Virus record (IMG/VR): IMGVR_UViG_3300042878_000174
Location: 1 to 63,168 of that record
DNA length: 63,168 nucleotides
From: a virus
Taxonomy: Duplodnaviria > Caudoviricetes
Strand: one strand, 5' to 3'
Notes under the pieces: generated by a model
The model's input: only the letters and a program-made list of their open reading frames with translations
Told to the model about the DNA's origin: nothing
The model's database searches: none
Made by a program: the position numbers and the translations under genes
Shown: positions 1,779-53,064 of the stretch, one piece after another
Position numbering within the stretch: position 1 is the stretch's first letter
Layout: the number at the start of each line of letters is the position of its first letter

Positions 1779-1788
1779 CGTTTAAACC

Positions 1789-2052
1789 TTAAGCCATTGG
1801 GCCACGGGACATAAAGCCTTTGGTCGCTGCACCTGCACCGCGCATCTTGATGCCAGTTGTTTTAGCTGCTGGTGCAGGGCGACGATACACGTTACCTACA
1901 GCCATATTGACTGTTCCGGCATCGCTGTGGTCATCACCACTGCCGGGGTTCTCAGAAGCTTTAACGACTTTACCAGTCATTGTGTGTGGCGTAGCGTAGA
2001 CCTTGGCATCGCCAACTTCTTTACCCATCATTTTTTTGCTAAATGTAGCCAT
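1789..2052 (-). CDS. Small basic virion-associated protein
   Basis: 87 aa ending KMRGAGAATKGFMSRGPMA; tightly packed in operon. Confidence 0.7.
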   Translation of the reverse strand: MATFSKKMMGKEVGDAKVYATPHTMTGKVVKASENPGSGDDHSDAGTVNMAVGNVYRRPAPAAKTTGIKMRGAGAATKGFMSRGPMA

Positions 2053-2054
2053 GA

Positions 2055-2243: not shown

Positions 2244-2254
2244 GTTTAAACTCC

Positions 2255-2638
2255 TTAAGATATTGTTACTGTACCAACAAATGTCGTTGCCACCAAGTAG
2301 TTTGGTGTCAATCCTGCATCATTTAAACTGGCTCCACCAACCGGCTGCCAGCCCCACTGTATGTCTCTTGAACCACCAGACAGGTTACCGCTAACGTTTA
2401 CACCAGAGGTGACATACGTTGTATCCCTACGCGGATTGCGTAGAGCTTGCGGATCATCCACTGGAAATGTTCCAAGCATTAACTGAGGTTGATCTGGATC
2501 CCAGCATTCTGGGCACACCAACAACTGATACTGACGCTGCTTAATGACTTCAGTCTTAAGCTTCTTTAACTGATACTGCTGGCCGCACCGATCACATTCA
2601 GCAATCGCTATCTTGCCGGATGCAAATCGGTTACCCAT
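2255..2638 (-). CDS. Zinc-finger protein of the structural module
   Basis: CDRC...CPEC Cys pairs followed by DPQALRNPR. Confidence 0.7.
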   Translation of the reverse strand: MGNRFASGKIAIAECDRCGQQYQLKKLKTEVIKQRQYQLLVCPECWDPDQPQLMLGTFPVDDPQALRNPRRDTTYVTSGVNVSGNLSGGSRDIQWGWQPVGGASLNDAGLTPNYLVATTFVGTVTIS

Positions 2639-3567
2639 TACATACTCCCACCAATAAACATCTGACGGGGCACAAAGCGGATGGCCGCTTTCTCTCTGTC
2701 TTCACCGGCTGCCAGATCAAACTGCTCGTTGTATGCAGCCTTAAGCATCTCAAGGCGGGGCATTAACTCAGGCACTTTCATGGCGATGTGATACGCCAGA
2801 CCAGCCACTACACATGGCAGGAAGCGGAAATTCATGTCTGCTGTCTCTGCACCAGCGCCAGCATCCTGAACCCGGCGCAATCTCCAGTACACAAACTGGT
2901 AAGACGTGCTGTTATCAGGCGTAGGCCAGACAGTAACCGCAGGAAGCTGAGGAACAAAGACTGCCGTGCCATCTGCCTGAGAGGCAGCCGTTGTATTGTT
3001 CTGACCACGGAATACACCACCAAGGGTATTCCCTGAGATGTAGCCATAGTAGATGTCTTCACTGTTTAAACGCAGAAAACCAGATCCTGCTAACCCAACC
3101 ACCGTGTTAAGCGTGAGCGTGGTGTCCGTGGAGGAGATGGCTCCAACCAAGACCGCATCTGTTGGGTTAACTTGTCCAGAAAGCCGCTGAACCCACACTT
3201 GAATGGGACGTGCTTGCTGTAGCTTGTTCGGTATGGTCGCATAAGTAGAAACACTAATACGTGTGATTGTTAGGTCAGCCTGCGTGGAAGAGGAGTTCTG
3301 GCCTGTACGGATAACCTGCTCTAACAGATCAATCGTATCTGTAGGCAGGGCGTAGGTAGCAAGACCCGGTGTCAGGTTAATAAACCCTTGCTCCATCGTC
3401 CACATGTTGATGCCACGGTTCTGCCACTCTATGGTCATGAGGTTCATTGATCTGCGTGCTGTACGCAAGTCATAACCTGAACGCATCTCCCGACCCGCAC
3501 GCTCCCATGCTTCCTCGGCAATCTCCGTGAAATCCATATTGAAAAGCGTTGATCCGGTAGTGGTCAT
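2638..3567 (-). CDS. Tail tubular A / head-tail adaptor-like protein
   Basis: IAEEAWERAG..ARRSMNL...EWQNRGIN.WT N-terminus; WPTPD and FLPC..AGLAY C-terminus. Confidence 0.6.
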   Translation of the reverse strand: MTTTGSTLFNMDFTEIAEEAWERAGREMRSGYDLRTARRSMNLMTIEWQNRGINMWTMEQGFINLTPGLATYALPTDTIDLLEQVIRTGQNSSSTQADLTITRISVSTYATIPNKLQQARPIQVWVQRLSGQVNPTDAVLVGAISSTDTTLTLNTVVGLAGSGFLRLNSEDIYYGYISGNTLGGVFRGQNNTTAASQADGTAVFVPQLPAVTVWPTPDNSTSYQFVYWRLRRVQDAGAGAETADMNFRFLPCVVAGLAYHIAMKVPELMPRLEMLKAAYNEQFDLAAGEDREKAAIRFVPRQMFIGGSM

Positions 3568-4562: not shown

Positions 4563-5489
4563 TTAGCAAATTTTGCAACGTGTCTTGCCTTTAGTGGCAA
4601 TACCGTCAGCACGTCTAGACGCAGATGAAACCATTCCACCGGAGGCATATTGCTTTACTGCACCACCGCGCTTCTTGGCGGTGACATCGGTAACATCAGA
4701 ATCTTTGCGGGGGCCGCTAAGTTTTTTTGTATCCATACCAATTTTTTTGGTACTTAATGCTTTCTTGGCTGCTTTTGCCGCATCGTACATTTTCTTTGCT
4801 TTGTATGCACCAAGAGCACCCAAACCTGCTACACCCGTAGCCATTAAGGCATTGCCAACGTTGCGACCAGTTTCTGAAGAATCAATTTTTTCACCTTGGG
4901 GTGCTTTAGCAGATTGGCCGGGAATCTTAGCGGCGGCAGATTTCTCTTCATCACGAGGGCCACCGTGCGTAGCAATAGGAGGGCTTGTGCCAGCATCACT
5001 ACGCATACCACGTAATGGGCCTGCGTACTGGGGAGCTTGAGGCATACCAATACGATCTTGTTCGGGCTTTGGTTTAGACGCAACAGGCGGTCTAGCAGGT
5101 AACGTAGGCTTATTCATTACCTGACGTGTAGGCTTGACGGTTTCGCTAGAGCTACGACCAGCACTTGGGCCATAGTCTGAATACATGTCGTCAGACAGAG
5201 GACGTGAAGACGCAGCAGGCATAGAAGGGGCGGATGGCATAGGTTGATTAACCGATACCGATTCACCGCGATCACGGCCACGGCCAGCACCAAAGCGGTT
5301 GTATGCTTCCGAGCCGGGCTGGTCAATGTTACCTGCGCGGATGCGTTCAAAGAAGCCTACAGGAGCTTCTTTATTTGACATCTCTAGGCCACGTTTTTTA
5401 GCAGCGGCTTCCATGGGATCCATTTCACCCATAACTTCGCCGCCACCTTCGTAGCGTTTAAACTTCTTCATTGGTTTCTTGGTAGCCAT
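4563..5489 (-). CDS. Low-complexity putative internal head protein with GG / ADGIATKGKT tag
   Basis: Pro/Ala/Lys-rich; C-terminus YASGGMVSSASRRADGIATKGKTR; AAGGAG RBS. Confidence 0.75.
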   Translation of the reverse strand: MATKKPMKKFKRYEGGGEVMGEMDPMEAAAKKRGLEMSNKEAPVGFFERIRAGNIDQPGSEAYNRFGAGRGRDRGESVSVNQPMPSAPSMPAASSRPLSDDMYSDYGPSAGRSSSETVKPTRQVMNKPTLPARPPVASKPKPEQDRIGMPQAPQYAGPLRGMRSDAGTSPPIATHGGPRDEEKSAAAKIPGQSAKAPQGEKIDSSETGRNVGNALMATGVAGLGALGAYKAKKMYDAAKAAKKALSTKKIGMDTKKLSGPRKDSDVTDVTAKKRGGAVKQYASGGMVSSASRRADGIATKGKTRCKIC

Positions 5490-5499: not shown

Positions 5500-5964
5500 T
5501 TAGCAGGCTTTGCCGCCCATGTTCATCTTAACCATTGTTGCTTTGGTTTTGCCTTTTGTAGCAATCCCGTTAGCTGATTTGCGGAATGCGCCGCCAGCAG
5601 CCAACTTAGTCATAGGCTGACCTTTGTGCAAACGGCCTTCGTGTTTATTCACAGCCTTCTGCATCATCTTTTTGTCCATCTTGACATCTTCATGAGCCAT
5701 GCCGCCTTTTTTCATCTTGCCAACGCCATCAGCAGCAAAGTCAGGAACCATTTTCCCGCCCTTGTTGACCATGTTTAAACCGCCTGATGCGTATCCACCC
5801 ATGTTCATCTTTTTCATATCACCACCTTTAGAAAATTTACGGCCTTTGTCAGCCGCTGAAAAATCTTTCCCCACAGAGGTGGGAACGCCTGCTTTCTTAG
5901 CAAAAGATGGGTTATTAGCCACCGCTGCCATGAAATTATGTTGAGCTTTACTCTTACTTGGCAT
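5500..5964 (-). CDS. Basic putative internal head protein with seven xxxGG repeats
   Basis: MPSKSKAQHNFMAAVA N-terminus; FSKGG, MNMGG x2, YASGG, VNKGG, MKKGG, LAAGG; ANGIATKGKT. Confidence 0.75.
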   Translation of the reverse strand: MPSKSKAQHNFMAAVANNPSFAKKAGVPTSVGKDFSAADKGRKFSKGGDMKKMNMGGYASGGLNMVNKGGKMVPDFAADGVGKMKKGGMAHEDVKMDKKMMQKAVNKHEGRLHKGQPMTKLAAGGAFRKSANGIATKGKTKATMVKMNMGGKAC

Positions 5965-7619: not shown

Positions 7620-7648
7620 TTTATACCACTGTGTTTAAACCAATGCAA
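7620..7648 (-). promoter_or_regulatory. Sigma70-like promoter with GTTTAAAC in the spacer
   Basis: TTGCAT-17 bp-TATAAA with extended TG on the minus strand. Confidence 0.6.
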
Positions 7649-11255: not shown

Positions 11256-13637
11256 TTAGCTACCTCGTTTAAACAGGTCAACTTGAACCTTTTGGTTGTT
11301 TTGTTTTTCCTGAGCTTGCATACGAGCCATATCAAGTTGAGCCTGCGTGTCGATCCGCTTGTTCTCAAGTTCGAGTTTGGCCTTCCCAAGTTCAATATCG
11401 GCGGCAATCTTCTGCGCCTTGGTCTGTGCTTCCTGACCCTTAAGCTGGAGTTCAGCTTGTTGCATCTGCACCATAGGATCTTGTGCTTGTTGCTGGGCTT
11501 GCTGTTGTTGCTGGTTAGCTTGGTTAAGCTGTAGCAACTGAGCGGAGCCTTGGGCAACCAGACGGGACAACTGCACTTCCACGTCTTCTGGTAGTTTGGA
11601 GTCTGGAGCGGGCAGAGGTACACCGACCTGCTCCTCAACTTTCTTGCGGTACAAGAATGCCAAGTGCTCTGCAATGTGAGCCATCACTGCGGCTTGGATC
11701 TTCTGTGCCATTGGGTTCTGGCCAATCTGGGCTGCAATCATTGGATCCTGCATGAACGCAGTGTGCGCTGCAATGTGCGCTTCTTGATCCTGATAGATGA
11801 ATGCTTTAGTTGGCTTTCCGTTGAGGAATGCCATGTTCTCACTGATCGGATCTTTAGGCGTTTGGTCATCTGCGCCGGGGATCAGTTTGTCTGCGTTTTT
11901 GACACCTAGAACCTCAATCATCTGGCGGTGCAGCAAAGGCAGGTCATAGATCTGCGGAGCACCCTGAGCCAACTGGATCACAGCCTGATACTGCATGATC
12001 CTTTGAGCCATCGTGGAACTATTAGGATCTGATACAGGAATGACCTCGACCATGTCGTAGTCAGATTGTTTTACCTGACGGTCGTTGCCTTGTGGGTCGT
12101 ACTCATACTCAGCGGGAGAGTAGTCCCTGATGATGCCTTTGAGCAGTTTAAACTCTTGCTTCATTGAATAATGAACACGGGCCTGCACTGCGCCCATGGT
12201 CTTCAATGTTCTCTCAAGTAACGCTAAAGTTGTACCGACCGGAGCGTTGGCGCTCATGTCAGAGATCTTCATGTCTGAGATAGAACCCAGACGGCGGCCT
12301 TCTTCTGTGATCCTATCTAGAAGAGTTAACAAAGTGCCACTTGGCTCTTTGTAAGGCAGCATCATAATGTTATCTTTGATGACACCGCTTGGAACATCAA
12401 CGTCCCTGAACTCACCCGGTTGGATAGGTGTGTCGTCGCCTTTGATACGAGCACCACGTGCTTTCAAGCCGCCGGGCAAGTTAGCTAACGTACCTGCGTC
12501 CACCAGTTGACGGATCAAAGATGTACCTGCACGGGCGTAACCACCAATGATGTGGATTAGACCCATACCGTAGAAACCAAAGCCGGGGATGTAGCAGTAG
12601 TCTACAAAGTGCTGCCGTTTGGTCTTCTTAGCATCGTCTTCTAGGTAGTTACGGCGGATGGCAAGAATCTTGTTTGTGCCACGATCAATCGTGATGACAT
12701 AAGGTAGGCCGATGCCTGTCTCTTCGCCTTCAGAATCTGTATCTTCAAAACCTTCTAAGTCCCAATATGCGTGGACTTCCAAGAGTTGGTAGCGGTCGTC
12801 GTCTGTGGCTTTGTAACCTTGTTGGTCGGCCTTCTTCTTCTCAATGTCTGAGAGATGCTGGACAGGCTCACCTAAGTCTATATCCCGATAGAAACCGCTC
12901 ACCTGTAGGCGACGCATTTCATTCTTGGTCTTACGCATCACATGGGTCACACGTTCTGCGTTTTGGAGATTAGAAGCACCGTACGGGACAATCATGTCTT
13001 CGGCAGGAATAAACACTGCGACTTGACGCTCCATAGCTGGGTCGTAGTAAACCTTCTTAAATGCTGCGCCTGACAGACCTAAGGAGTACAGCATCCGCTC
13101 ATGTTCTGGGCGGTACTCAGGCATTTCTTCCGTAAGTTTGAAGTTCATGTCAGCCTGCACACGCTCGGCTGCTTCTTCTTTCAGGCGGTCAATCGCACCG
13201 ATGATCTCTGTCTTAACAGGGCCAGCGGCAGGGAAGGTTTCCATGATGGATTCGGATTGGAACCGAATCGCAGCTTCCGTCAGGACTGTAGAGTAAACAC
13301 CGCAGGCTCCATTCCATGGCTCTGTACGCTCTTCATAATTAACGCCTAGGACTTCCAAGCCTTTGACAAAGCTTTCTGCCCAGTCTTTGCGGGAGGCTAT
13401 GTCAGCTTCTACGAGTTCTACAAGCTCAGAGGCAATCTTGCCTAAAGCACCGTCGTCAAGGATTTCTGCAAGGTTGTCATCAAATTCGCTGTCGTATTCT
13501 GATTCCGGTTCTAGAATAATCTCAACGCTTTCCTCTTCAATGATGAGGGGATCGTCTAATTCAACGTCCACGCCGATGTCTTCGAGGAGGTCTGAAAGAC
13601 CCATAGGTGCTTGGCTGATTGCTTTGTCGATACTCAT
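11256..13637 (-). CDS. Portal protein
   Basis: 793 aa directly after TerL; F..NLAE, GFGFYG.GL, LVDAGTLANLPGG, Gln-rich coiled-coil barrel as in P22-type portals. Confidence 0.85.
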   Translation of the reverse strand: MSIDKAISQAPMGLSDLLEDIGVDVELDDPLIIEEESVEIILEPESEYDSEFDDNLAEILDDGALGKIASELVELVEADIASRKDWAESFVKGLEVLGVNYEERTEPWNGACGVYSTVLTEAAIRFQSESIMETFPAAGPVKTEIIGAIDRLKEEAAERVQADMNFKLTEEMPEYRPEHERMLYSLGLSGAAFKKVYYDPAMERQVAVFIPAEDMIVPYGASNLQNAERVTHVMRKTKNEMRRLQVSGFYRDIDLGEPVQHLSDIEKKKADQQGYKATDDDRYQLLEVHAYWDLEGFEDTDSEGEETGIGLPYVITIDRGTNKILAIRRNYLEDDAKKTKRQHFVDYCYIPGFGFYGMGLIHIIGGYARAGTSLIRQLVDAGTLANLPGGLKARGARIKGDDTPIQPGEFRDVDVPSGVIKDNIMMLPYKEPSGTLLTLLDRITEEGRRLGSISDMKISDMSANAPVGTTLALLERTLKTMGAVQARVHYSMKQEFKLLKGIIRDYSPAEYEYDPQGNDRQVKQSDYDMVEVIPVSDPNSSTMAQRIMQYQAVIQLAQGAPQIYDLPLLHRQMIEVLGVKNADKLIPGADDQTPKDPISENMAFLNGKPTKAFIYQDQEAHIAAHTAFMQDPMIAAQIGQNPMAQKIQAAVMAHIAEHLAFLYRKKVEEQVGVPLPAPDSKLPEDVEVQLSRLVAQGSAQLLQLNQANQQQQQAQQQAQDPMVQMQQAELQLKGQEAQTKAQKIAADIELGKAKLELENKRIDTQAQLDMARMQAQEKQNNQKVQVDLFKRGS

Positions 13638-13645: not shown

Positions 13646-15142
13646 TTAATAATATTCCATGCGTCTGCGATATACAGGTTCATCTGGCTCATCAGAATCG
13701 ATGGAAATGAACCCGCCTTGACGGAATCTCATCAAAGCTTGGCTGGAGGAGTCAACAAGGTCGTCATGATCGCCATTGGGGAAGGAGGCCAGTTCATCCA
13801 TCACTTCTTCAGCCCAACGAGTCTCTGGACACCAGACAACACCTGAAGCAAACAGATCGGAGATTGCGTTTACACGCGAGATCTTATCGTTTCCTTTGCC
13901 CGGTGTAAACTCAGAAAGCGGAATGCCCATCTTACGCATCTCATAGATGAGCGGAGCACCTGCGGCTCTCTTCTCCACGATCAATGTATCTGGCTCCCAT
14001 TCTTGATAAAGCTCCAAAGCCATTTTCTTAAGCTCTGGAAACTCCATGCGTTGTTTAAACGCATCTAGCAGGATGATGTTTGGCCTCATGTCACCGGATT
14101 TGTTAGGGTGTTGGAAGACACCCCATGTAGTGCAGGCAGAATAGTCTGCGCGGTTGTTCTTTTCAAAGGCCGTGTCCCAGCTTTGGATGATGTAATCGCA
14201 CTGCGGGGGTGTATCTTTGTCCCAGATAGACCATTGTTCCCGCTTAATGATTGCGCCTTCTTCGGATGTGGGGTTCTGTTGGTACTGAGCCTCCCATTTA
14301 GCGACTGGTAGTTCAGCTTTTAGCGCTTCTAGCGCTGTTTTTGACCAAAAAGCTGGCCATAAAGGCGTTCCAGACGGCATGATTGCCGGAAAATCAATGA
14401 TTTCCCACTGATCTACGCCATCTTTCCCTGCGTTTTTGAGAATCTGGCCGGTCAAGTCACGTTTCGACCACCTAGTCATCACAATAATGATGGCTCCACC
14501 CGGCTGTAAACGCTGGCGAGGGCCAGATGTGAACCACTCATAGACATTATCAAACACCGCAGGGTTGCCTTGCTTGGCTTCCTGCTCCGAATGAGGGTCG
14601 TCAATGATTAAAAGATCGGCTCCTTTACCTGTGACAGCACCCCCAACGCCAATAGCGAAGTAATCACCACCCACGTGAGTATTCCAGCGACCGGCGGCCT
14701 TTGAATCGCTCGATAGCTTTGTATCAAATACCTTCTGATAGTTCTCTGAAGAGACAAGATTCCTAACCTTTCGTCCAAAGCCTGTAGCAAGTTCTGCGGT
14801 GTGTGCAGTCTGAATGATCTTCTTCTCAGGAAACTTACCCAAGAACCACGACGGGAGCAGATAAGAAGCAAACTCAGACTTTGTATGCCGGGGCGGCATG
14901 TTGATGATCAGGCGCTTGAGATCACCACGGGCAACCCTTTCAAAGGCATCGGCCATTATGGCGTGGTGTTTGCCAGAGATGAAGATAGGCCACATCTGCT
15001 GAACAAAGAACAAATAGGATTCTTTGCATCTCTCAACCCGATCAAACTCTAGGAGCTTCTGAACCTTGGCTCTTTCTGCGGGAGGGGCAGTGTCGGCAAG
15101 CGTCAAATAAAGCTCAATCTCTTTGCGGGTCAGTAGGCTCAT
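13646..15142 (-). CDS. terL: Terminase large subunit
   Basis: Walker A MPPRHTKS, Walker B LLIIDDP, MTRW coupling motif, nuclease SWDTA and HDDLVDS. Confidence 0.95.
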   Translation of the reverse strand: MSLLTRKEIELYLTLADTAPPAERAKVQKLLEFDRVERCKESYLFFVQQMWPIFISGKHHAIMADAFERVARGDLKRLIINMPPRHTKSEFASYLLPSWFLGKFPEKKIIQTAHTAELATGFGRKVRNLVSSENYQKVFDTKLSSDSKAAGRWNTHVGGDYFAIGVGGAVTGKGADLLIIDDPHSEQEAKQGNPAVFDNVYEWFTSGPRQRLQPGGAIIIVMTRWSKRDLTGQILKNAGKDGVDQWEIIDFPAIMPSGTPLWPAFWSKTALEALKAELPVAKWEAQYQQNPTSEEGAIIKREQWSIWDKDTPPQCDYIIQSWDTAFEKNNRADYSACTTWGVFQHPNKSGDMRPNIILLDAFKQRMEFPELKKMALELYQEWEPDTLIVEKRAAGAPLIYEMRKMGIPLSEFTPGKGNDKISRVNAISDLFASGVVWCPETRWAEEVMDELASFPNGDHDDLVDSSSQALMRFRQGGFISIDSDEPDEPVYRRRMEYY

Positions 15143-15369: not shown

Positions 15370-15419
15370 TGATGTGAGTTTAAACGATAATGAGAACGTT
15401 CGCAAGTGTTTAAACGAAA

Positions 15420-15592: not shown

Positions 15593-15594
15593 CA

Positions 15595-16242
15595 TCACGT
15601 CACGCGCTGTTTAAACGCGGTGGCTTGCACGTCTTGCACCGATGACCGATCCCCCTTGAGTAGACGCAAGTGGCTTGCAAGTTCACGCTTGAGTTGGTCA
15701 GCAGTGACAGGCGCTTTGTCTTGAACATCACTAGGTGTAAACAGGCCACAGGCTTTACCCATTAGTTCCAGTGCTTTAAGTTGTGTGCTTGGTTGACTGT
15801 CTTTACTGAGTGCAAGCAAGCCCTTGAGCACATACCTTTTAGATGCAACCATGTCATCTACCAAGTGCTCTATGGTTTCCCCCCAAGCTTCTTTGAGCAG
15901 TGCTTGAACCCTTGGATCACGCATCAGCTTGTTGGCATTGGCTGATATAGATGCATCGCTCCCTGTCGAGTTTTTGAAGCCCTCACGGTAGCTTTGCCTG
16001 AGGCTTTGCCCTCTTATAACCCCTTGCACGAATGCCATCGCAGATGGCGACAACGGCAAGCTTCTTTTGTGCTCCCCTGCTACTGGTAGTCCGTCTCTCC
16101 GCTTCCTAGGCTTAGGTGCATTCTTAGCTAGAGCATCAGCCAACTGTTTCGCTTCGCTCATGGGTTCTGCGCTCTGATCCTCCCATTGCCCCTCGGCCTC
16201 GGCCAAGGCCTCTCGATACTCAGCCTTTGTAGTCTTACTCAT
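15595..16242 (-). CDS. terS: Terminase small subunit
   Basis: AFVQGV..G.SLRQSY..GF...ANANKLMRDPRVQA HTH and LKALELMGK; upstream of TerL; GGAGG RBS before ATG at 16242. Confidence 0.7.
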   Translation of the reverse strand: MSKTTKAEYREALAEAEGQWEDQSAEPMSEAKQLADALAKNAPKPRKRRDGLPVAGEHKRSLPLSPSAMAFVQGVIRGQSLRQSYREGFKNSTGSDASISANANKLMRDPRVQALLKEAWGETIEHLVDDMVASKRYVLKGLLALSKDSQPSTQLKALELMGKACGLFTPSDVQDKAPVTADQLKRELASHLRLLKGDRSSVQDVQATAFKQRVT

Positions 16243-16326
16243 AAACACCGCCTCCATTTTGTGACTGACCAGTTCAATAAATGCTCACTTAGTCCACGTT
16301 ATGAACTGTTCGTATTATGCAACAAG

Positions 16327-16781: not shown

Positions 16782-17369
16782 ATGCTTATTCATACTGAGA
16801 GAGAAACCTACTTACAGAGTGCAGTCGAGGAGTTACGCCCCTCATTCTCAGCCAACGGCCACACACTGCCATTGGCAATTCGCGTGTCATGCGCTCTGCC
16901 CTCTAATGCTAAACGCTCAGGGGCAATTGGCGAGTGTTGGGCTGACACCCGCTCAAGTGACGGCCACTATGAAATTTTCATCAGCCCCACACTGGACAAC
17001 CCCGCACGTGTTTTTGACGTGCTCATTCATGAACTCTGCCACACGGCCAAGGGGTGCATGAACCACGGTGTTAACTTCCAAAAACTGGCTGAGGCCATGC
17101 TCTTGATTCCCGCCTCGAACACTTGGAAGGCGACTGTCGGTGCACCCACTTTCATGGCCGCTTATGGGTCAATCATCGAGGGCTTAGGCGACTACCCTCA
17201 TGCCGCCCTTGACATGTCATCGCGCAAGACGCAAGGCACTCGCATGTTGAAGGCCTCTTGCCCCTCATGTTCCTACACTGTTCGCCTGACGGCCAAGTGG
17301 GCATTCGACTCATACGGCAACCCCCGCCTACCCATCTGCCCCTGTGGCGATACCTTAGCCCTCGTTTAA
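16782..17369 (+). CDS. SprT-like zinc metalloprotease with C-terminal zinc ribbon
   Basis: VLIHELCH...NHG..F; CPSC...CPC; start reassigned to ATG at 16782 after AAAGGT. Confidence 0.75.
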   Translation: MLIHTERETYLQSAVEELRPSFSANGHTLPLAIRVSCALPSNAKRSGAIGECWADTRSSDGHYEIFISPTLDNPARVFDVLIHELCHTAKGCMNHGVNFQKLAEAMLLIPASNTWKATVGAPTFMAAYGSIIEGLGDYPHAALDMSSRKTQGTRMLKASCPSCSYTVRLTAKWAFDSYGNPRLPICPCGDTLALV

Positions 17370-17388
17370 ACATAGGAGAGTCAACATC

Positions 17389-18810: not shown

Positions 18811-18825
18811 TAGGAGCGTTTAAAC

Positions 18826-20614: not shown

Positions 20615-20658
20615 TGACCGTAGTAGAAGATAAGCGTTTAAACACTAGGAGAGAAACC

Positions 20659-21316: not shown

Positions 21317-21579
21317 TGTTTAAACATATTACATCGCACCCTTGGACTGTTGGCCGTCGAGGCCTCAAGACCAGTAACTCAGTTTGGGGATATGAGGGCG
21401 ACCATGGCATTCCGATCGTGGCCGACTGCTTCAGCAAGGGCACTCCCATAGCGACTCAGAGGGCGAATGCCCGACTGATAGCGATCGCCCCTCAAATGTT
21501 CGAGATCATTCAGAAGATGCACGGCAACGCTGAGGCCATGGCCTTGGTGGCTTACATGGAGAAAAGCCATGAAGATTAG
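21313..21579 (+). CDS. Conserved phage early protein (ANARLIA.AP motif)
   Basis: HITSHPW...ANARLIAIAP; GGAGG RBS. Confidence 0.7.
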   Translation: MMFKHITSHPWTVGRRGLKTSNSVWGYEGDHGIPIVADCFSKGTPIATQRANARLIAIAPQMFEIIQKMHGNAEAMALVAYMEKSHED

Positions 21580-22050: not shown

Positions 22051-22094
22051 CGCTGTCGCTGCTGTCCGCTGCTGGCTGCTGTGGACGTTTAAAC

Positions 22095-41711: not shown

Positions 41712-41719
41712 GTTTAAAC

Positions 41720-43504
41720 TTATGTAGGATTAACAGGTTTAAATGTACCAAATCCGGGGCTAGGTGTGTTGACATCTTGCGTACCAGATTTACCAGTAAG
41801 CAATCTTTGATCAGCCATAAAGCGCTCAATAACCTTATTGCGCTGTGTAACCAAAGCTTTTTCTTCAGCAGATCCGGGCTTGAGCACGCTCAATTGTTGG
41901 TCAATCATCTTAGTCTTCTCAGCCAAAGCGTCAGCAACCGCTTTAGCTTGACGCTGTGCGGCACTTTGATACTGACCACCAGCAATCAAAGCTGCGGCAC
42001 GATCAGATGCTTCGTTGAAAGTCATGCCCTGATTCTGGCGCATGATCTCTTGAGCAACTTGAATAATCTGCGGTGAACGAGCGGCAGTGGCAGCTTGGAT
42101 ACTGTTGCCACGGGCTTGTTCTTTAAGCTTGGCAATGTCCATCTCGTTGGAAAACTTCTTCTGCTCCAATTCCAAACCAATCTTTTCTGCATCTTGCTTA
42201 TGTTTAAACGCAGCTTCAAAGTCACCACGCGCTTCAGCACGACGGGCAGCTTCAAGTTCAGCACGCATCTTAGCCATGCCCATCTCTTGCTCACGACGCA
42301 TCTTGGCTTGTGCATCGGCACGCTCAAATGCAGCCGCTTCAGAAGCGCCAGCAGATTTACCAAAGCCACCTAACAAAGCACCCAGACCTTTTTGACCACG
42401 GGTAGATTCGCCTGCGGCAATTAAAGCTTGGAAAAAGTCAGAACGTGTACGAGCTTTTTCTTGCTCTGATACACGGCCACGGTCGGCTTCATCTTGTTGA
42501 GCCATCTTATTAAGCAACGCCTCAAACCCAGCCCCAGCCATGCCGGGGTTAGCTTGTTTAAACTCAGCCAATTTTTTGCTGTAAGCCTCTGGGTCAGGTG
42601 CTGTAAACGATGGAGCACCGGGCATCTTGATACCGGCAGGGATACCACCACCGGTTCCGGGCATAGGTGGCATAGGAGGTGCGGGAGGAGCGGCTACAGA
42701 TGCAATGCCAGAAGCGCCTGCGTTTTGACGCAACAAGCGGGCAGTCTCTGCGGCACTTTGATCATTAGGGCTTGTAGGAACATTAGGCGCACGGCTTTGT
42801 TGGCCGCGCCTTAATTCATCCATGGCAGGCGTAGCCGTGCTTGTGTCAATCATGGAGCCAAGATAAGGGATCTCTTTACCAGATAAAGCACGGGCTGGGC
42901 GGATTAACGCAGTGTCAACTGCACCAGCTAAACCACGAGGAATTAGGGTGGCAACGTCATATCCTGCCGCACTCATTTTGTCAATAATTTCTGAAACGGC
43001 TGCACGATCGCCTTTGAGTTGAGCACGTGCCAGTTCTTCTTTGGCTTTGTCTTCAACCACATCGCCGTTGGCAAAAGCAACAACACCGCCACCGCCTGCG
43101 AATTTAAACATGTCATTGGTTGGCAGGGAAGTCAATCCACCCGCAGCCATCTGGGGCATCTCTGGCATCTCTTCCTCTTGCTGAGGAGGCTGAGGTGTAC
43201 CTTCTGGTACTGGTTGAGGCTGACCCATCAGGCTTTGCTGAAGTTGCTCATTAGACTGCGCTTGACGGGCAGCACCGGCCTGCATGAGGTCGGTAGCCTG
43301 TCCTGTAATCTCTTTCTCAAGCTTGTCTTTGACTGTGCCTTCAGGAGGTGTTCCTGTCCTTGCAGACTGCTCCATCTGCTTGCGGCGGTTTAGTTCACCC
43401 AAAGCCAAATAGGGAGGAACTTGTGGGTTCTTCCCGTTAGCGTATTCCATGATTGCCCTCATGGGCATATCCTTGAGGTGCTCTTGTACTTGGATCAGAT
43501 TCAT
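41720..43504 (-). CDS. Putative internal virion / DNA ejection protein
   Basis: Ala/Gln-rich helical protein with MAAGGL and FAGGGGVVAF; sits between other ejection genes. Confidence 0.65.
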   Translation of the reverse strand: MNLIQVQEHLKDMPMRAIMEYANGKNPQVPPYLALGELNRRKQMEQSARTGTPPEGTVKDKLEKEITGQATDLMQAGAARQAQSNEQLQQSLMGQPQPVPEGTPQPPQQEEEMPEMPQMAAGGLTSLPTNDMFKFAGGGGVVAFANGDVVEDKAKEELARAQLKGDRAAVSEIIDKMSAAGYDVATLIPRGLAGAVDTALIRPARALSGKEIPYLGSMIDTSTATPAMDELRRGQQSRAPNVPTSPNDQSAAETARLLRQNAGASGIASVAAPPAPPMPPMPGTGGGIPAGIKMPGAPSFTAPDPEAYSKKLAEFKQANPGMAGAGFEALLNKMAQQDEADRGRVSEQEKARTRSDFFQALIAAGESTRGQKGLGALLGGFGKSAGASEAAAFERADAQAKMRREQEMGMAKMRAELEAARRAEARGDFEAAFKHKQDAEKIGLELEQKKFSNEMDIAKLKEQARGNSIQAATAARSPQIIQVAQEIMRQNQGMTFNEASDRAAALIAGGQYQSAAQRQAKAVADALAEKTKMIDQQLSVLKPGSAEEKALVTQRNKVIERFMADQRLLTGKSGTQDVNTPSPGFGTFKPVNPT

Positions 43505-44422: not shown

Positions 44423-44431
44423 GTTTAAACC

Positions 44432-45382
44432 TTATGCTGGTAAATGTTTGTCAGCCTTGGAATTGGCTGCAACGTTCTTTAAAGTCTTGCCACGAGCTTT
44501 TTGGATACGATCCATCATGGCATATAGTTTACGTGCTCCTGCGTCTGTAGATCCATTACCGATCTCAGAAACAATACGGGCTGGGATGACAAACTCGCCA
44601 TCGGCCAGACGGGCTGGTTGGTTCTTCCCAATCATCGCAGGGATGTCATCAGACACACCATCGCCCGGCCCTTTAAGGAGGCGACCGCCATCGGAGTAGC
44701 TACCCAAAGACCCTAGCCCACCCTGAGCCATACCGCCTTGAGCGTATCCGGGTTCTATGATGGGATTGGCTTGTACGGGTGCGGGAGCCTCTACAACCGG
44801 AGCGGCTGCCGGGGCAGCAGCCTGAGGCGTGTAAACCATAGGTGAGAAGTACGTTACGCCACCTGAGCCGGGGCGACGTGCCATGCCTGCGTTTGGCCCC
44901 ATAGCCGCTTGATAGCGAGATTGAATATCTGCCAAAGGAGTTTGAGTTACGTCAGCAATTTGCTGCGGTGCAACACCAAACTCATTCATAGAACGAGCAA
45001 TCATTGAGTCGTTTAAACCGGGTCTTTTAAGATAATTTAAAACTTCTTCGTTAGACGGTGCTGGGCCACGGTTTACTGTGCTGACCGGAGGAGCGTACTG
45101 TGTACGTGAAGCTGTGTACTTTGGTATGCTTCCTTGGTATCCCTTGAAGCCACCACCGCCAGAACCACCCATAGAATTGAGCAAAGCGCCCAAACCGCCA
45201 AGACTTGCAATCTGCGCCATGGATCCAGATTTGCCGGACAAGATTCCGCCAATAGAACTAAGGATACCGGGGTCGTAATTTATATCCGACAGGATTTGGG
45301 AGTTAGATGGAGATGCCCCCAAGTCATTGTAGGCAAACGCATCGTTCCTAGGATCCGCAAAAAAATCGTATTCTTCACCCAT
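44432..45382 (-). CDS. Virion protein with GPGDG.SD.IPA...LADGEFV C-terminal domain
   Basis: YAQGG/YSDGG precede GPGDGVSDDIPAMI....ARLADGEFVIPA..V...GNGS..AGA..L. Confidence 0.7.
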   Translation of the reverse strand: MGEEYDFFADPRNDAFAYNDLGASPSNSQILSDINYDPGILSSIGGILSGKSGSMAQIASLGGLGALLNSMGGSGGGGFKGYQGSIPKYTASRTQYAPPVSTVNRGPAPSNEEVLNYLKRPGLNDSMIARSMNEFGVAPQQIADVTQTPLADIQSRYQAAMGPNAGMARRPGSGGVTYFSPMVYTPQAAAPAAAPVVEAPAPVQANPIIEPGYAQGGMAQGGLGSLGSYSDGGRLLKGPGDGVSDDIPAMIGKNQPARLADGEFVIPARIVSEIGNGSTDAGARKLYAMMDRIQKARGKTLKNVAANSKADKHLPA

Positions 45383-50636: not shown

Positions 50637-50983
50637 TATCCAACCTTCCAATTTGTTCCGTCAGAATATACAGGCACAGCCACTGCGCCGCCAGTCACCA
50701 CGGTTGCCCCAAATGTTGGGCCTAAAGCATCTGTTACAAAAGCTCTTGCACCTTTGCCTGAAGTGACTGCGCTTGGCAGCGTAGCCACGGTGTAATTAGT
50801 TAAAGGAGGCACTATGCCAGAAGCCATCAACTGAGTAGTTAACGCATCAATCCTGTTGAAGTACAGACGCAAGATGTTTAGCATCTGGTCAAAATACACA
50901 CGGTTGTACGCGTCCGGAGGTAGCGGCAAGTTAGGTGCGGCTACCTTGTTAAGCTCAAACTCTGACGTAATTATGTAGGTCAT
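50636..50983 (-). CDS. Tail-associated protein
   Basis: APNLP..P..Y...Y.DQ..NILRLYFN; YTVATLPSA...GARAFVTDA...VYSDGTNW. Confidence 0.7.
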   Translation of the reverse strand: MTYIITSEFELNKVAAPNLPLPPDAYNRVYFDQMLNILRLYFNRIDALTTQLMASGIVPPLTNYTVATLPSAVTSGKGARAFVTDALGPTFGATVVTGGAVAVPVYSDGTNWKVG

Positions 50984-53064
50984 CGTCTGCCGTCCGGTCT
51001 AATGTCAATACGGGTAGCACCCAACTGCCAAGCTGTTCCTAGATTGTCTGAGCTAACTTTGAGAATTAACTGCCTGCCCCGCACACGAGTATTAATCTGG
51101 CCTGTAAAGCCCTCAGTCACTACGTATTGAGCGCCGGTTAATTTGTCTACATCTTTATTTACCGCAGTACCTGTGCCAGAGCCTGAGTTCTGCATTGGGT
51201 ACAAAGTGTACGTAACCTGCGGAGTTGGAGATGCGCTTGATCCAGAGAACGTCAAGTCAGGCAACATTCTCCAAACAAATCCAAAGTGTTCACCGTCCTC
51301 AATGTCAAACTCTGCGGATGAGATGTAAGCCTCAATGCCTGCTGGCGTACCTGTTTCGTTATTGTCTAAACCAAACTCCTGATCAACCAAGTTATAGCTG
51401 TATGTTGCGGCTATTGGATAATTACGCAGACCAGAGTCAAGCCATGCCGTTCGCGCCATCGTGCCGTAGTACCAGACCTTTTCAAGGTAGTTGTACACCA
51501 CATAACGATCAACAGTCAAACTATTGGCAGAGCAATAGAACCACCAAATTTCGTTAAACCCTTCGTTAGTACTTGCAAAAACCTGTTGATTCTGGTCAAG
51601 GTTAATGTCTTGATAAATATACCGGCGAAGATCACAAGGTAAAGTCTGCAAGCGTCCATCGTACAGATAGAACTTATCAACGCCCATCCAATACACCACA
51701 CCAGAGGCTTGGGCCGCTGCGTTCTGACCAAGGATAGATATGTTATCTCCCATCAACTGACTAGACCAAACCACTGGCGGGCCAATGTATTGGAGTGAAT
51801 AGATAGCTGAATCAGTCCAAACCAAAATCTCTTGGCGGGTCTGGATGGCAGTTACGATGCTTGAGCCGTGAGATAACGTAACGCTACCAGCCTGATTGGT
51901 TGCGGCTGGTGTCCAGTTAACCACAGACTCTTGATCTGACCAGCGAACAAGCATAGGGCTTTGGGCTGTAGCACCATAGTCATTACAGCCAAACGCAAAC
52001 ACAAATCTACTTACGTCAGATACAAAGATAAAGTTTTGAATAATGGGGCAGTCTGATGCACCAGATAAATTAACAATGTTTACACCGCTAGGCATGATGT
52101 AATGAACGCCAGACTGCGATCCAGAGGTATTGATGGCCGCACCGCCGGGTGTAGCGGATAGGTTAAATGTTGTACCGGTGGAGTTCTTTACGTAATAAAT
52201 AGTGCCAACTACGAGGCCAGTAGGTAACGCAGACGGAAAGCCTTCGTTAGTCAAAATCACGGGCAGATTATTTGCCAATGAGATTGCTGTAGTGACAACC
52301 GCAGGAGAGCCTATGGTGACCGTAAATGATGCTGGTGACAGACCAAACGAAGCATCCCAGTAGTAAATAGGGCCGCCACGGAAACCATATATTAAGTCTT
52401 CACCAAAGTTATTCTGACTCCACAGACGCAAAGCAGCGTTACTTGTACCGCTAAAGCCCCAAGTGCCAGACCCCCAAGAACCTGCGCCCCATCCTGTTTG
52501 CGGGGTTTCGTAAGCTACGCCAGTGTTAATCTGGTAGACAGCAGACACTGTAGTGCCGCCGCCGGTTGCAGTAGATGAAGCCGCAGAAGCCGCTGTAATG
52601 TTGTAAGTATCTGCGTCAATTAGAGTAATCTGATATTCATTGTTTAGGTTTAAACCACCAACAGTAGCTACATTGCTAAAGCTTACAAAGTCTCCATTAG
52701 CCGCGCCATGCGCTGAATCAGTGACTAAAACCGTGGTGCTTGTATTGGTGGTAGTAAAAGGATTGCTTAGTACAGCTGCCGCACGGATTGGCGTAATGTC
52801 GTAATAATCGCCACCATTCTCAAGGTAAAACTTAAGGTTAGTACCTACACCAATTAGGTTCAAATTCTCAAGCGTAATCCAGTTCCACAAAGAACGGCAT
52901 ACACCTTGAAAATAAGACACTGAAATACGTGCCCAGCCACCGATCTTTTCAGGCGTACCTTGGCGAAACCGCACTTTGTCGGACTCATACCAACCGTTCT
53001 CGTTGGCATAACGGGTGTTCTCCCGGTTAATGCCCGGCTTCAATATAAGTTTTTTAAGCGCCAT
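50980..53064 (-). CDS. Tail nozzle / stabilization protein (tail tubular B or P22 gp10-like)
   Basis: KPGIN...W...DKVRFR.G.PEKIGGW, VRWSDQE, TNQAG, beta-propeller-like body, R.RGRQ...W.LG..RIDI.PDGRR end. Confidence 0.7.
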   Translation of the reverse strand: MALKKLILKPGINRENTRYANENGWYESDKVRFRQGTPEKIGGWARISVSYFQGVCRSLWNWITLENLNLIGVGTNLKFYLENGGDYYDITPIRAAAVLSNPFTTTNTSTTVLVTDSAHGAANGDFVSFSNVATVGGLNLNNEYQITLIDADTYNITAASAASSTATGGGTTVSAVYQINTGVAYETPQTGWGAGSWGSGTWGFSGTSNAALRLWSQNNFGEDLIYGFRGGPIYYWDASFGLSPASFTVTIGSPAVVTTAISLANNLPVILTNEGFPSALPTGLVVGTIYYVKNSTGTTFNLSATPGGAAINTSGSQSGVHYIMPSGVNIVNLSGASDCPIIQNFIFVSDVSRFVFAFGCNDYGATAQSPMLVRWSDQESVVNWTPAATNQAGSVTLSHGSSIVTAIQTRQEILVWTDSAIYSLQYIGPPVVWSSQLMGDNISILGQNAAAQASGVVYWMGVDKFYLYDGRLQTLPCDLRRYIYQDINLDQNQQVFASTNEGFNEIWWFYCSANSLTVDRYVVYNYLEKVWYYGTMARTAWLDSGLRNYPIAATYSYNLVDQEFGLDNNETGTPAGIEAYISSAEFDIEDGEHFGFVWRMLPDLTFSGSSASPTPQVTYTLYPMQNSGSGTGTAVNKDVDKLTGAQYVVTEGFTGQINTRVRGRQLILKVSSDNLGTAWQLGATRIDIRPDGRR

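Follow-up and report, generated by a model that had tools for sequence, protein, structure and literature searches.

The eight-base palindrome GTTTAAAC occurs 49 times in the genome of an uncultured tailed lake phage, the IMG/VR record IMGVR_UViG_3300042878_000174. The record is a single contig of 63,168 bases; it was analysed in its entirety and is called the window below. A sequence-only reading of this DNA had listed 49 copies where about one would be expected, and all 49 were found to match exactly, the first at 1780 and the last at 52648 (Table 1). Null models and related phages indicated that the word is maintained by selection acting on the DNA and not on the encoded proteins. It is probable that the word is a site under selection to which some protein binds. 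A fuller statement, to which we give a probability of roughly one third, is that the copies are dispersed operators or a genome mark, each a symmetric site on duplex DNA, and that in the clade of the window they are read by a small LexA-like protein.

Enrichment of the palindrome and selection on DNA

Dinucleotide-preserving shuffles of the window (n = 100) contained the word 1.08 times on average (standard deviation 0.97, largest value 4), in agreement with the earlier estimate of about one copy, and none of the 100 reached 49. Markov models predicted 1.0 (order 0), 1.25 (order 2) and 2.8 copies (order 3). GTTTAAAC is the commonest 8-mer of the window. Its core TTTAAA occurs 85 times, compared with about 19-22 expected; 49 of these cores are flanked by G and C, 27 have one correct flank and 9 have neither.

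The open reading frames (ORFs) used here were crude calls, 82 in number, which cover 96% of the window and leave approximately 4% of the DNA non-coding. For a codon-level null, synonymous codons were permuted within each gene, which preserves the protein, its dipeptides and the codon usage of that gene. In 1000 such shuffles the mean number of copies in ORFs was 4.08 (standard deviation 1.68, maximum 10) as against the 38 observed. The sequence-only reading had named a codon- and dipeptide-preserving null as the decisive comparison, and the enrichment survived it. Chance and composition were ruled out as the cause by the shuffles, the Markov models and the codon null taken together.

The coding copies fall into two phases. 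Twenty read xGT-TTA-AAC (mostly R-L-N and G-L-N) and 18 read xxG-TTT-AAA-C (F-K), the site at 28113 being phased as G-L-N in ORF 27464-28243; the remaining 11 are intergenic or lie at gene boundaries. The word had been described as read in all three frames. The x-L-N and F-K readings stood, but V-stop was found solely at 17364 and 15408, where the word supplies the gene's own stop codon. The codons of the word dominate the corresponding peptides: TTT-AAA encodes 33 of 52 F-K pairs, TTA-AAC 32 of 78 L-N pairs, and CGT-TTA-AAC 13 of 14 R-L-N tripeptides. The suggestion that TTA leucine codons are forced into GC-rich early genes was thus right in substance. Contexts in which the word could be spelled without changing the protein number 48, and 37 of them are used (18 of 23 of the F-K type and 19 of 25 of the x-L-N type). 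Because the codon null lies far below the observed number and the neutral contexts are nearly saturated, selection acts on DNA, not on protein, as had been supposed.

All copies except one lie between 1780 and 45018 (48 of 49), and a single copy is found in the tail-gene block at 45.4-63.2 kb. This skew arises mostly because the tail block offers no neutral context of the F-K type and only three of the x-L-N type; it mostly reflects the tolerance of the proteins for the word, with no region-specific function. On a finer scale, 18 of the 49 copies had a start codon no more than 45 bp away (null 6.9), five of them abutting the ATG, and 20 had a gene boundary at such a distance (null 8.8). Arrays with copies 30-57 bp apart are present at four places in the window (15378/15408, 22037/22087, 22389/22431/22488 and 26061/26103). 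Copy 22087 abuts the only strong terminator hairpin. The word behaves as the genome-wide cis-acting mark that had been proposed.

Conservation in related phages

Relatives were collected through the large terminase subunit (TerL). The best 80 of at least 552 TerL relatives in IMG/VR, with TerL identities of 83-99%, are referred to as related loci, and the reversed GTTTAAAC sequence served as control word. The palindrome was present in 79 of the 80 loci, with 610 copies in 754 kb compared with 5 of the control, and was the top 8-mer in 51 loci. The complete genomes of this clade contain 49 (window), 46 and 39 copies; the control word occurs 0 and 1 times in the two relatives.

Two complete relatives, G1 and G2, were aligned to the window (identity in aligned blocks approximately 65-84% and 64-76%, respectively). 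Twenty-four of 31 window sites were kept in G1, as against 25% of all 8-mers, and 24 of 30 G1 sites were kept in the window. With G2, 3 of 9 window sites were kept, as against 10.5% of all 8-mers. Positional conservation in related phages, which the sequence-only reading had suggested examining, was therefore above the 8-mer background in both alignments. Sites specific to one lineage were 2-4 substitutions away from the word, some of the changes being purely synonymous (TTC-AAG versus TTT-AAA at window position 6386). This pattern points to purifying selection on the sites, accompanied by turnover.

The stretch 15001-25000 was present, by the criterion of at least half of the sampled words, in 23 metagenome runs of lake water (2018-2024). 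In four of these runs, none of them flagged as a possible source of the record, contigs (2018-2023) showed no differences around 15609, 17364, 18225, 22087, 22389, 22431 and 22488. The concern that the sites might be missing from independent data was not borne out, since they are present in contigs of other runs and in relatives. An assembly or library artefact is excluded by the independent lake contigs and by the diverged relatives carrying the word.

No near match to the window was present in the phage collection. By TerL the nearest named phages are 023Pt_psg01 and DSL-LC04 (both 57%), the pelagiphages HTVC027P (54%) and HTVC023P (49%), and the cyanophage MinM2 (47%). Only 3 copies were found in 50 kb of 023Pt (GC content 36.5%), none in 50 kb of DSL-LC04 and none in the 65 kb of MinM2. 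MinM2 has the polyvalent protein, primase-helicase, HNH, RusA and nuclease genes in common with the window and lacks the word, so these genes do not bring it. The ART and GP88 domains, which had been put forward as trans factors, belong with the ART-PolyVal, GP88 and LPD38 domains of the 2975-amino acid polyvalent protein (32784-41711, minus strand). Nothing ties them to the word, the homologous protein of MinM2 being accompanied by no copies in 65 kb. That homologue is annotated as RelA/SpoT. No report on enrichment of GTTTAAAC in phages was found among open-access papers and bioRxiv.

Consensus and variants

The base preceding the 49 copies is C or T in 43 cases and the base following them is A or G in 32; the fuller consensus is the 10-base palindrome YGTTTAAACR. 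Beyond the core and its immediate flanks no position within 45 bp on either side reached 0.35 bits. As no partner position exists in this interval, the element is a stand-alone dyad of 8-10 bp and not one half of a promoter. A bipartite or sigma-70-type promoter element was rejected for want of a partner hexamer at a fixed distance, and sigma-70-like matches at 15-33 kb of the window were fewer than in shuffles (7 versus 16.2).

The many one-off variants mentioned by the sequence-only reading were indeed in excess, in two classes. Variants at the first or last base occur 27 times compared with about 7 expected, and the asymmetric GTGTAAAC together with its complement GTTTACAC occurs 19 times compared with about 2; the other internal variants are at expectation (20 versus about 21). 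The three complete genomes of the clade contain 19, 27 and 26 copies of GTGTAAAC/GTTTACAC, and the other lineage described below 0-1. Nine of 15 alignable copies were kept in G1 and just one of them pairs with the palindrome, so they are not decayed palindromes. The doubly changed GTGTACAC showed no enrichment (2, 0 and 0 copies in the three genomes). The intact half of GTGTAAAC retains the R flank (8 A and 2 G among the 13 plus-strand copies). GTGTAAAC looks like one good half-site, as a protein reading half-sites would produce.

A second, unrelated phage lineage with the same word

When IMG/VR was scanned for three copies within about 120 bp, at least 119 stretches were obtained. Judged by their proteins, 30 were window-like, 51 belonged to an unrelated lineage (clade B) and 38 were fragments or other sequences. 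Five complete clade B genomes (39.6-41.6 kb) contain 37-49 copies of the word and 0-1 of the control. Three of the genomes, B11, B12 and B13 (G011-G013), were fetched; their GC content is 43-45.5%. The flanks agree with those of the window, with Y at -1 in 37/48, 31/42 and 32/37 copies and R at +1 in 36/48, 37/42 and 25/37. Genome-wide the density of the word in the phages is approximately 0.8-1.2 per kb, rising to 3-4 per kb in dense regions; in clade B local densities reach 3-4.7 per kb.

The clade B TerL is 22-26% identical to that of the window and has its nearest relatives in Streptomyces phages (49-50%). WhiB, a marker of actinophages (PMC10202952), was found in 3/3 clade B genomes (Pfam 9e-15) and 34 further loci, and in 0/3 genomes of the window's clade; the phage records matched by clade B WhiB all infect Actinobacteria (43/43). 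These comparisons place clade B among the actinophages, unrelated to the lineage of the window. Its genes (loci L333/L334 of B13, 16086-24512, and L330 of B11) code for a glycosyltransferase, a dNMP kinase, a class-II glutamine amidotransferase, an amidoligase, a SprT-like protease, WhiB and a sigma-70 region-4 protein. In size, GC content and gene types clade B recalls the isolated Planktophila phages (PMC10202952).

All three fetched genomes have an array of 3-4 copies in an intergenic gap beside a terminator hairpin. In B11 and B12 a TTGAC-type -35 hexamer comes after the array, which therefore lies between hairpin and hexamer; in B11 the hexamer is TTGACA, with a 17-nt spacer and AATACT behind it. 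Copies within 45 nt of a start codon numbered 2/42, 9/48 and 4/37 (nulls 6.3, 7.3 and 5.6; P = 0.99, 0.30 and 0.84).

Profiles built from the 82 window ORFs were compared with the six-frame ORFs of the three clade B genomes. The families common to both lineages were TerL (distant), the SprT-like protein, a Toprim primase domain, the small head-block proteins g3794 and g6200, and pieces of the tail fibre, whose shared domains gave phmmer E-values of 1e-11 to 1e-14. The SprT-like protein of the window is closest to those of actinophages (41-45%). Proteins of this type are widespread among actinophages. It was rejected as a sufficient reader, as Microbacterium phage IAmGroot has it (44% identical) and contains no copies. 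The primase was rejected as a shared specificity module, since the zinc-binding domain is missing from clade B, and since MinM2 contains a closely similar primase but no copy of the word. The 129-amino acid gene following the window primase proved unrelated to the clade B 129-amino acid and sigma-like proteins.

Avoidance of other palindromes

Sixteen six-base palindromes with expectations of 4-25 each have zero copies in the window, in line with the statement of the earlier reading that the phage otherwise depletes palindromes. ACGT, AGCT, CCGG, GATC and GGCC are absent from the whole 41-kb clade B genomes (B11 and B13), 30-41 of the 64 six-base palindromes are missing in clade B, and G2 has no CGCG. 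The sets purged by the two lineages differ. Evidently the phages survive by site avoidance; the purging would mean that their DNA is unmodified and hence carries no chemical mark. The methyltransferase families PF01555, PF02086 and PF00145 were absent from all five complete phage genomes of both lineages, which were searched over their whole length in six frames (positive controls matched). A phage-encoded methyltransferase was thus rejected, and the earlier remark that none is recognisable was confirmed for these families.

Bacterial genomes and possible hosts

None of the bacterial genomes sampled (151 Microbacteriaceae and 401 of the same class, the seed genome G007 being in both sets) carried the word at phage-like density. 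The counts were 0-54 per genome of 1-10 Mb; among five metagenome-assembled genomes (MAGs) counted, one of 6 Mb had 166. The highest excess was seen in one 1.9-Mb Microbacteriaceae genome (G020; 41 copies versus 8 of the control, about 0.02 per kb), which is unlike its relatives, and genomes of 1.2-1.7 Mb were mostly far below the control word (e.g. 1 versus 43 and 0 versus 30). The sequence-only reading had suggested checking candidate hosts for the motif; no enrichment was detected in the 552 sampled genomes and five MAGs.

In two small Microbacteriaceae genomes the observed/expected ratio was 0.41 and 0.26 for TTAA and 0.35 and 0.19 for TTTAAA; of the six-base palindromes expected more than twice, TTTAAA is the most under-represented there. 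Small genomes of the Microbacteriaceae show no purge of four-base palindromes, which makes them poor host candidates for clade B. Of the two copies examined in one small genome of this family (G085), one is situated between rplJ and rplL and the other in front of a metal ATPase gene; both are in ordinary intergenic DNA, with no regulator nearby. When contigs of cellular genomes were scanned for the three-copy pattern, the matches listed were mostly tandem repeats, plus two phage-like fragments. Word-rich phage-like fragments were found in a 2.1-Mb Burkholderiaceae MAG (two window-like contigs; MAG total 41 versus 45 of the control) and in a 1.7-Mb Microbacteriaceae MAG (one clade B-like contig, which holds all 6 copies of the MAG, versus 21 of the control).

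Four perfect TTATCCACA DnaA boxes in one orientation lie within 110 bp at 16327-16436, where the leftward late genes meet the rightward early genes; the window has only one other perfect copy, and relatives have 5-6 copies of the complementary TGTGGATA(AC). This segment is likely a DnaA-dependent origin, and the four boxes suggest that the phage uses the DnaA of its host. In high-GC Actinobacteria the DnaA box has G at the third position, which, set against the boxes of the window, would argue against a high-GC actinobacterial host. The two phage lineages may infect the same host group or hosts of different phyla.

A candidate reader and the alternatives

In the window the genes for the small terminase subunit, a 62-amino acid ORF, a winged-helix protein and TerL follow each other in this order, and the block contains three copies of GTTTAAAC. 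The winged-helix protein, 76 amino acids long (Table 1), aligns over the full length of the DNA-binding domain of E. coli LexA (residues 5-69, E 0.038) and also matches a PHROG of transcriptional repressors. Its ORF was called as 15139-15405, and alignment with relatives sets the start at 15369, so that the copies at 15378 and 15408 are both upstream of the gene. In all 63 related loci where 400 bp or more of upstream DNA was available, the gene directly precedes TerL. Of 74 loci, 62 have at least one copy in the 260 bp preceding the conserved core of the gene, and 19 of these 62 have a pair there, spaced 30-31 bp, at varying absolute offsets. The gene was not found in the word-poor relatives DSL-LC04 and 023Pt (first 50 kb of each) and MinM2 (whole 65 kb). 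Within the clade of the window the gene is linked to the word.

From the symmetric flanks, the stand-alone dyad, the regulatory arrays, the conservation and the saturation we infer a duplex site for a symmetric protein. YGTTTAAACR would be recognised on duplex DNA by a two-fold symmetric protein, and selection would have multiplied the word to near the maximum that coding sequence tolerates. The reader would be the 76-amino acid LexA-like winged-helix protein, whose gene lies between those of the two terminase subunits; one or two copies, often 30 bp apart, precede this gene. Arrays of 2-4 copies, 30-60 bp apart, beside terminators or promoter-like sequences would be operators, and through the intragenic copies this protein would be able to coat or mark the phage chromosome in its entirety. 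As with mycobacteriophage stoperators, such marking could shut off early genes late in infection; alternatively, it could allow phage and host DNA to be told apart at packaging.

Among the trans factors named by the sequence-only reading, the LexA-like protein gained circumstantial support from its constant place beside TerL and the copies upstream of it; the second lineage, which has the same word, lacks it. That it is the reader in the window's clade is a tentative proposal. Several observations weigh against it. Pfam LexA_DNA_bind was absent from all three clade B genomes in six-frame searches, a clade-specific profile gave no match there, a relaxed search returned only noise, and no small winged-helix gene is present upstream of the clade B TerL. 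The two lineages share few families, and no DNA-binding family is among them. The loci with the winged-helix gene are all close relatives (TerL 83-99%), so that co-occurrence is confounded by descent and the linkage cannot count as independent support. Since the recognition helix does not differ among relatives, there is no covariation to read. One related locus (L058) has the gene and no copies in 6 kb, and another (L037) has 1 copy in 7.6 kb. The intragenic position of 38 of the 49 copies and the near-saturation of free contexts are unlike ordinary operators, and the clustering at start codons is seen in the window and not in the second lineage. Finally, an identical word with identical flanks in a second lineage implies either a shared external reader or convergence, and convergence is unlikely a priori.

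An external reader is the strongest of the alternatives, possible but doubtful in our estimation. A host protein, or a mobile defence or restriction-type protein widespread in these lakes, would recognise YGTTTAAACR, and the phages would recruit it or titrate it with a sponge of decoy sites. The same core and flanks in two lineages with no common DNA-binding family would be explained, and both lineages have been shaped by restriction, as their palindrome purges show. Saturation of the 'more is better' kind fits titration, for which replicating phage DNA would offer thousands of sites, and the word is rare in the sampled candidate hosts, as a site recognised by one specific factor should be. 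The shared tail-fibre domains and the actinophage-like SprT protein are compatible with a common host group. The distribution of WhiB (3/3 versus 0/3 genomes), the four TTATCCACA boxes of the window and the window-like fragments in a Burkholderiaceae MAG suggest, however, that the hosts may belong to different phyla, and the purged palindrome sets differ between the lineages. No candidate host protein was found, the G085 copies having no regulator nearby, and a restriction enzyme specific for the word would select against it.

It is rather unlikely that the word serves as a self mark, rare in the host and dense in the phage, by which a nuclease that recycles the host chromosome, the packaging machinery or a protective coat distinguishes phage from host DNA with no need of base modification, much as Chi serves RecBCD and uptake sequences serve competence. 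Such a role would account for the contrast between 0.8-1.2 copies per kb in phages and 0-54 per bacterial genome of 1-10 Mb, for the strong under-representation of TTTAAA in the two small Microbacteriaceae genomes, and for the genome-wide saturation of neutral contexts. Purging implies unmodified DNA, so that chemical marking would not be available; the candidate reader gene lies inside the terminase operon, and both lineages encode PD-(D/E)XK nucleases. With tight arrays collapsed and in regions chosen after seeing the data, the spacing of copies was more even than random in clade B (P = 0.0006, 0.025 and 0.037) and tended to be so in the window (P = 0.06), but not in G1 and G2 (P = 0.22 and 0.77). 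No nuclease or motor of such specificity was identified, and the word differs from Chi and the uptake sequences, which lack symmetry and are enriched in host DNA. The presence of the mark in two lineages would need a further premise, for instance that phages protect one another in mixed infections or that the reader was transferred.

A mutational process like that suspected behind the cyanobacterial repeat HIP1, in which a drive linked to methylation or repair, with mismatch correction biased in favour of the word, makes and maintains it without selection for binding, appears improbable. It would yield a hyper-abundant 8-base palindrome with variants concentrated at the outer bases (27 versus about 7, with internal variants at 20 versus about 21), and it would likewise saturate free contexts and keep sites conserved. 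Yet the three methyltransferase families are missing from 5/5 genomes, and no repair genes were seen among the scanned window proteins. A drive encoded by the host should enrich the host genome, and neither the 552 sampled genomes nor the MAGs holding phage-like fragments are enriched. Near-cognate variants should be depleted and are at or above expectation, and the word has no internal C able to deaminate.

A role in RNA or translation, as the slippery heptamer U-UUA-AAC of a -1 frameshift, in the tuning of initiation or as an endoribonuclease site, is very improbable. The word, being a palindrome, appears in the transcript of either strand, 20 of the 38 coding copies are in the X-XXY-YYZ phase, and the window copies cluster near starts (18/49 within 45 nt, five touching the ATG). 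Eighteen coding copies are, however, in the other phase and 11 lie between genes; the symmetric preference for Y before and R after the word fits duplex recognition and not RNA, the second lineage has no start-codon association, and arrays sit after terminators. Equally slight is the chance that the word is a recombination linker or hotspot promoting module exchange among related phages: gene junctions account for 11 of 49 copies in a window that is only about 4% non-coding, 6 of the 30 boundaries of homology blocks shared with G1 have a copy no more than 50 bp away (null 2.9, P = 0.064), and the phage encodes Sak, a PD-(D/E)XK exonuclease and RusA, but the boundaries with G2 showed no effect (2/20, P = 0.58), 8-10 bp is too short for homologous exchange, and strong conservation of single intragenic copies would not be expected.

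Comparison with known repeats and sites

HIP1 (GCGATCGC), found in cyanobacterial chromosomes, is likewise an 8-base palindrome that occurs tens of times above expectation in all usable frames and between genes. Its one-off variants are reportedly clustered at the outer bases (described by Elhai in 2015), a property that was tested here for GTTTAAAC and found to be shared. Unlike HIP1, GTTTAAAC is found in phages and not in a cellular chromosome, has an AT core and no cognate methyltransferase encoded with it; the sampled bacterial genomes are not enriched for it, and the phages purge other palindromes.

Phages are textbook cases of palindrome avoidance. GTTTAAAC is the recognition site of the rare cutters PmeI/MssI, and its core TTTAAA is that of DraI/AhaIII. 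Unlike usual restriction sites, it is enriched about 40-fold or more in genomes purged of other palindromes. Chi and the DNA uptake sequences (DUS/USS) are short words occurring about once per kb or few kb, read by a DNA-processing machine and subject to 'more is better' selection. In contrast to these asymmetric, host-enriched words, GTTTAAAC is symmetric and rare in the bacterial genomes searched.

Mycobacteriophages of Cluster O have a 17-bp dyad repeat, TGTTCGGNNNCCGAACA, in more than 30 copies, many between genes or near gene ends; its authors recovered no stable lysogens, and about one third of the copies are inside genes (PMC4351075). The likeness lies in the number of dyad-symmetric copies spread over the genome and in their nearness to gene ends (20 of 49 within 45 bp in the window). 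The Cluster O repeat differs in its 7-3-7 structure with a spacer and in its restriction to one cluster, whereas GTTTAAAC is a spacer-less 8-10-mer, about three quarters intragenic and present in two unrelated lineages.

The stoperators of Cluster A phages, the sites of the L5 repressor, are also mentioned there as dispersed sites (PMC4351075). The window shares with them the dispersal of dozens of copies of one site through a phage genome. Stoperators are proposed to silence transcription and occur in temperate phages whose repressor is known; the sites lack symmetry, follow the direction of transcription and lie for the most part between genes. GTTTAAAC, by contrast, is symmetric and without orientation, 38 of its 49 copies are coding, and its reader is only a candidate.

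Operators of the GntR/HutC type are bound by a winged-helix dimer reading the palindromic GT-N4-AC, whose centre is rich in A/T, with GT-M-TA-K-AC as the HutC consensus (PMC4494728). GTTTAAAC fits GT-N4-AC with a central TA, and GTGTAAAC was likewise found to fit GT-N4-AC, but where the consensus has M and K, GTTTAAAC has T and A. The GntR domain (PF00392) was found in 0/5 genomes, including 0/3 of clade B.

Two abundant uncultured lake phage lineages have thus erased whole classes of restriction sites and yet keep one palindrome at least 40-fold enriched, at a cost in amino-acid choices. This implies a strong DNA-reading function, and one that is tractable: the word is a PmeI site, the 76-amino acid candidate can be expressed, and the phages recur in lakes over years. 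If the copies are an operator network, a sponge for a host factor or a self mark, they would add a sequence-level strategy to phage-host conflict, and they may offer a handle on the long-unexplained HIP-type repeats. Should the self mark be real, whether read by a protective coat, a nuclease brake or the packaging apparatus, it would be the first 'self' word of the Chi or uptake kind used by viruses, and unrelated lineages would have converged on it or copied it. In practice the three-copy pattern is a signature of such phages, at least 119 viral stretches having it, 81 of them in the two lineages.

Table 1. Copies of GTTTAAAC and of its asymmetric variant in the window, and two genes of the terminase block (gene strands in brackets; 'kept' refers to the alignments with G1 and G2)
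Feature	Position	Strand	Context
GTTTAAAC	1780..1787	.	intergenic; 1 nt 5' of ATG of gene 927-1778(-)
GTTTAAAC	2244..2251	.	touches ATG of gene 2055-2243(-)
GTTTAAAC	3064..3071	.	gene 2638-3567(-), R-L-N; kept in G1
GTTTAAAC	5456..5463	.	gene 4563-5489(-), codon 8, F-K; kept in G1
GTTTAAAC	5773..5780	.	gene 5500-5964(-), G-L-N
GTTTAAAC	7633..7640	.	intergenic; kept in G1 and G2
GTTTAAAC	11267..11274	.	portal gene, C-terminal end, F-K; kept in G1
GTTTAAAC	12146..12153	.	portal gene, F-K; kept in G1
GTTTAAAC	14053..14060	.	large terminase gene, F-K; kept in G2, not in G1
LexA-DNA-binding-domain-like winged-helix protein, 76 amino acids	15139..15369	-	Pfam LexA_DNA_bind 8.3e-10; six-frame 6.4e-11
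GTTTAAAC	15378..15385	.	9 nt upstream of likely start (15369) of LexA-like gene; first of 30-bp pair
GTTTAAAC	15408..15415	.	second of 30-bp pair; stop codon of gene 15410-15598(-)
Small terminase subunit gene	15595..16257	-	phrog_51 1.8e-8
GTTTAAAC	15609..15616	.	small terminase gene, C-terminal end, F-K; kept in G1
GTTTAAAC	17364..17371	.	stop codon of SprT-like gene 16725-17369(+); upstream of ribosome site of 17389
GTTTAAAC	18225..18232	.	MoxR-type ATPase gene, F-K; kept in G1
GTTTAAAC	18818..18825	.	intergenic, after AGGAG; touches ATG of gene 18826-19908(+)
GTTTAAAC	19436..19443	.	gene 18826-19908, R-L-N
GTTTAAAC	19999..20006	.	VWA gene, R-L-N
GTTTAAAC	20636..20643	.	ORF 20587-20886, R-L-N (or upstream of alternative start)
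GTTTAAAC	21318..21325	.	gene 21304-21579, codon 4, F-K
GTTTAAAC	22037..22044	.	intergenic, first of 50-bp pair; kept in G1
GTTTAAAC	22087..22094	.	intergenic, abuts terminator hairpin 22095-22113; kept in G1
GTTTAAAC	22389..22396	.	gene 22119-22508(-), R-L-N; copy 1 of three-copy array
GTTTAAAC	22431..22438	.	gene 22119-22508(-), R-L-N; array copy 2, 42 bp from copy 1
GTTTAAAC	22488..22495	.	gene 22119-22508(-), R-L-N; array copy 3, 57 bp on; kept in G1 and G2
GTTTAAAC	23284..23291	.	primase-helicase gene, R-L-N; kept in G1 and G2
GTTTAAAC	24203..24210	.	small HNH gene, F-K; kept in G1, and in divergent strain with altered flanks
GTTTAAAC	26061..26068	.	gene 25984-26229, F-K; first of 42-bp pair in 32-nt direct repeat
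GTTTAAAC	26103..26110	.	second of 42-bp pair with 26061
GTTTAAAC	28113..28120	.	Sak annealing-protein ORF 27464-28243, G-L-N; kept in G1
GTTTAAAC	28763..28770	.	gene 28567-28938, R-L-N
GTTTAAAC	29318..29325	.	gene 29298-29609, codon 6, F-K; kept in G1
GTTTAAAC	30117..30124	.	gene 29932-30201, F-K; kept in G1
GTTTAAAC	30576..30583	.	gene 30520-31722, F-K
GTTTAAAC	31732..31739	.	gene 31719-31928, codon 4, R-L-N
GTTTAAAC	32064..32071	.	intergenic, upstream of DUF3310 gene; GTTTACAC in G1
GTTTAAAC	32415..32422	.	gene 32311-32520, F-K; kept in G1
GTTTAAAC	34362..34369	.	2975-amino acid polyvalent protein gene, S-L-N; kept in G1
GTTTAAAC	34902..34909	.	polyvalent protein gene, R-L-N; absent in G1
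GTTTAAAC	36488..36495	.	polyvalent protein gene, F-K
GTTTAAAC	37410..37417	.	polyvalent protein gene, R-L-N
GTTTAAAC	38574..38581	.	polyvalent protein gene, R-L-N; kept in G1
GTTTAAAC	39765..39772	.	polyvalent protein gene, G-L-N; kept in G1
GTTTAAAC	40086..40093	.	polyvalent protein gene, G-L-N; absent in G1
GTTTAAAC	41712..41719	.	fills 8-nt gap between stop of 41720-43504(-) and ATG of polyvalent protein gene
GTTTAAAC	42202..42209	.	gene 41720-43504, F-K; kept in G1
GTTTAAAC	42556..42563	.	gene 41720-43504, F-K; CTTTAAAC in G1
GTTTAAAC	44423..44430	.	between genes, touches ATG of 43514-44422(-); kept in G1
GTTTAAAC	45011..45018	.	gene 44432-45382, G-L-N; kept in G1
GTTTAAAC	52648..52655	.	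gene 50980-53064, G-L-N; sole copy of tail-gene block
GTGTAAAC, 13 copies	794 (794..801), 13903, 15735, 16710, 23216, 23935, 24953, 27528, 32319, 33368, 37946, 41312, 44829	+	exact match
GTGTAAAC, 6 copies, as GTTTACAC on the plus strand	2396 (2396..2403), 10116, 13868, 29984, 35319, 52078	-	exact match

Other features of the genome

Proteins were annotated with Pfam for 42 of the 82 window ORFs and with PHROGs for 7 more, the other 33 lying mostly in the head and tail blocks. The large terminase, the portal, a 694-amino acid virion protein, tail-fibre paralogues and a primase-helicase identify the genome as that of a tailed phage. The early genes include those for the LexA-like winged-helix protein, the SprT-like protease, a MoxR ATPase, VWA, HNH and RusA proteins, a PD-(D/E)XK nuclease and Sak. 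The 49 ORFs (of 82) scanned as proteins with Pfam and PHROGs included no recognisable DNA polymerase. The replication genes seen were a T7-gp4-like primase-helicase with a zinc-binding domain, Sak, the PD-(D/E)XK nuclease and RusA.

In contigs from three other lake runs, early-region segments at 24418-24769, 21194-21316 and 20894-21019 are replaced or skipped as strain-level cassettes, 350 bases being replaced by 356 others in one swap and 121 by 118 in another. The small ORF 25984-26229 contains tandem direct repeats at 26016-26129, first 21 nt twice and then 32 nt twice with 42-bp spacing; the second, 32-nt repeat holds both GTTTAAAC copies of this ORF. Successive tail-fibre paralogues (phrog_2295) with many Gly codons occupy 54923-60493 on the minus strand and resemble a tail-fibre protein of clade B genome B11. 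Among the 8-mers of the window CCACCACC ranks second, with 43 copies.

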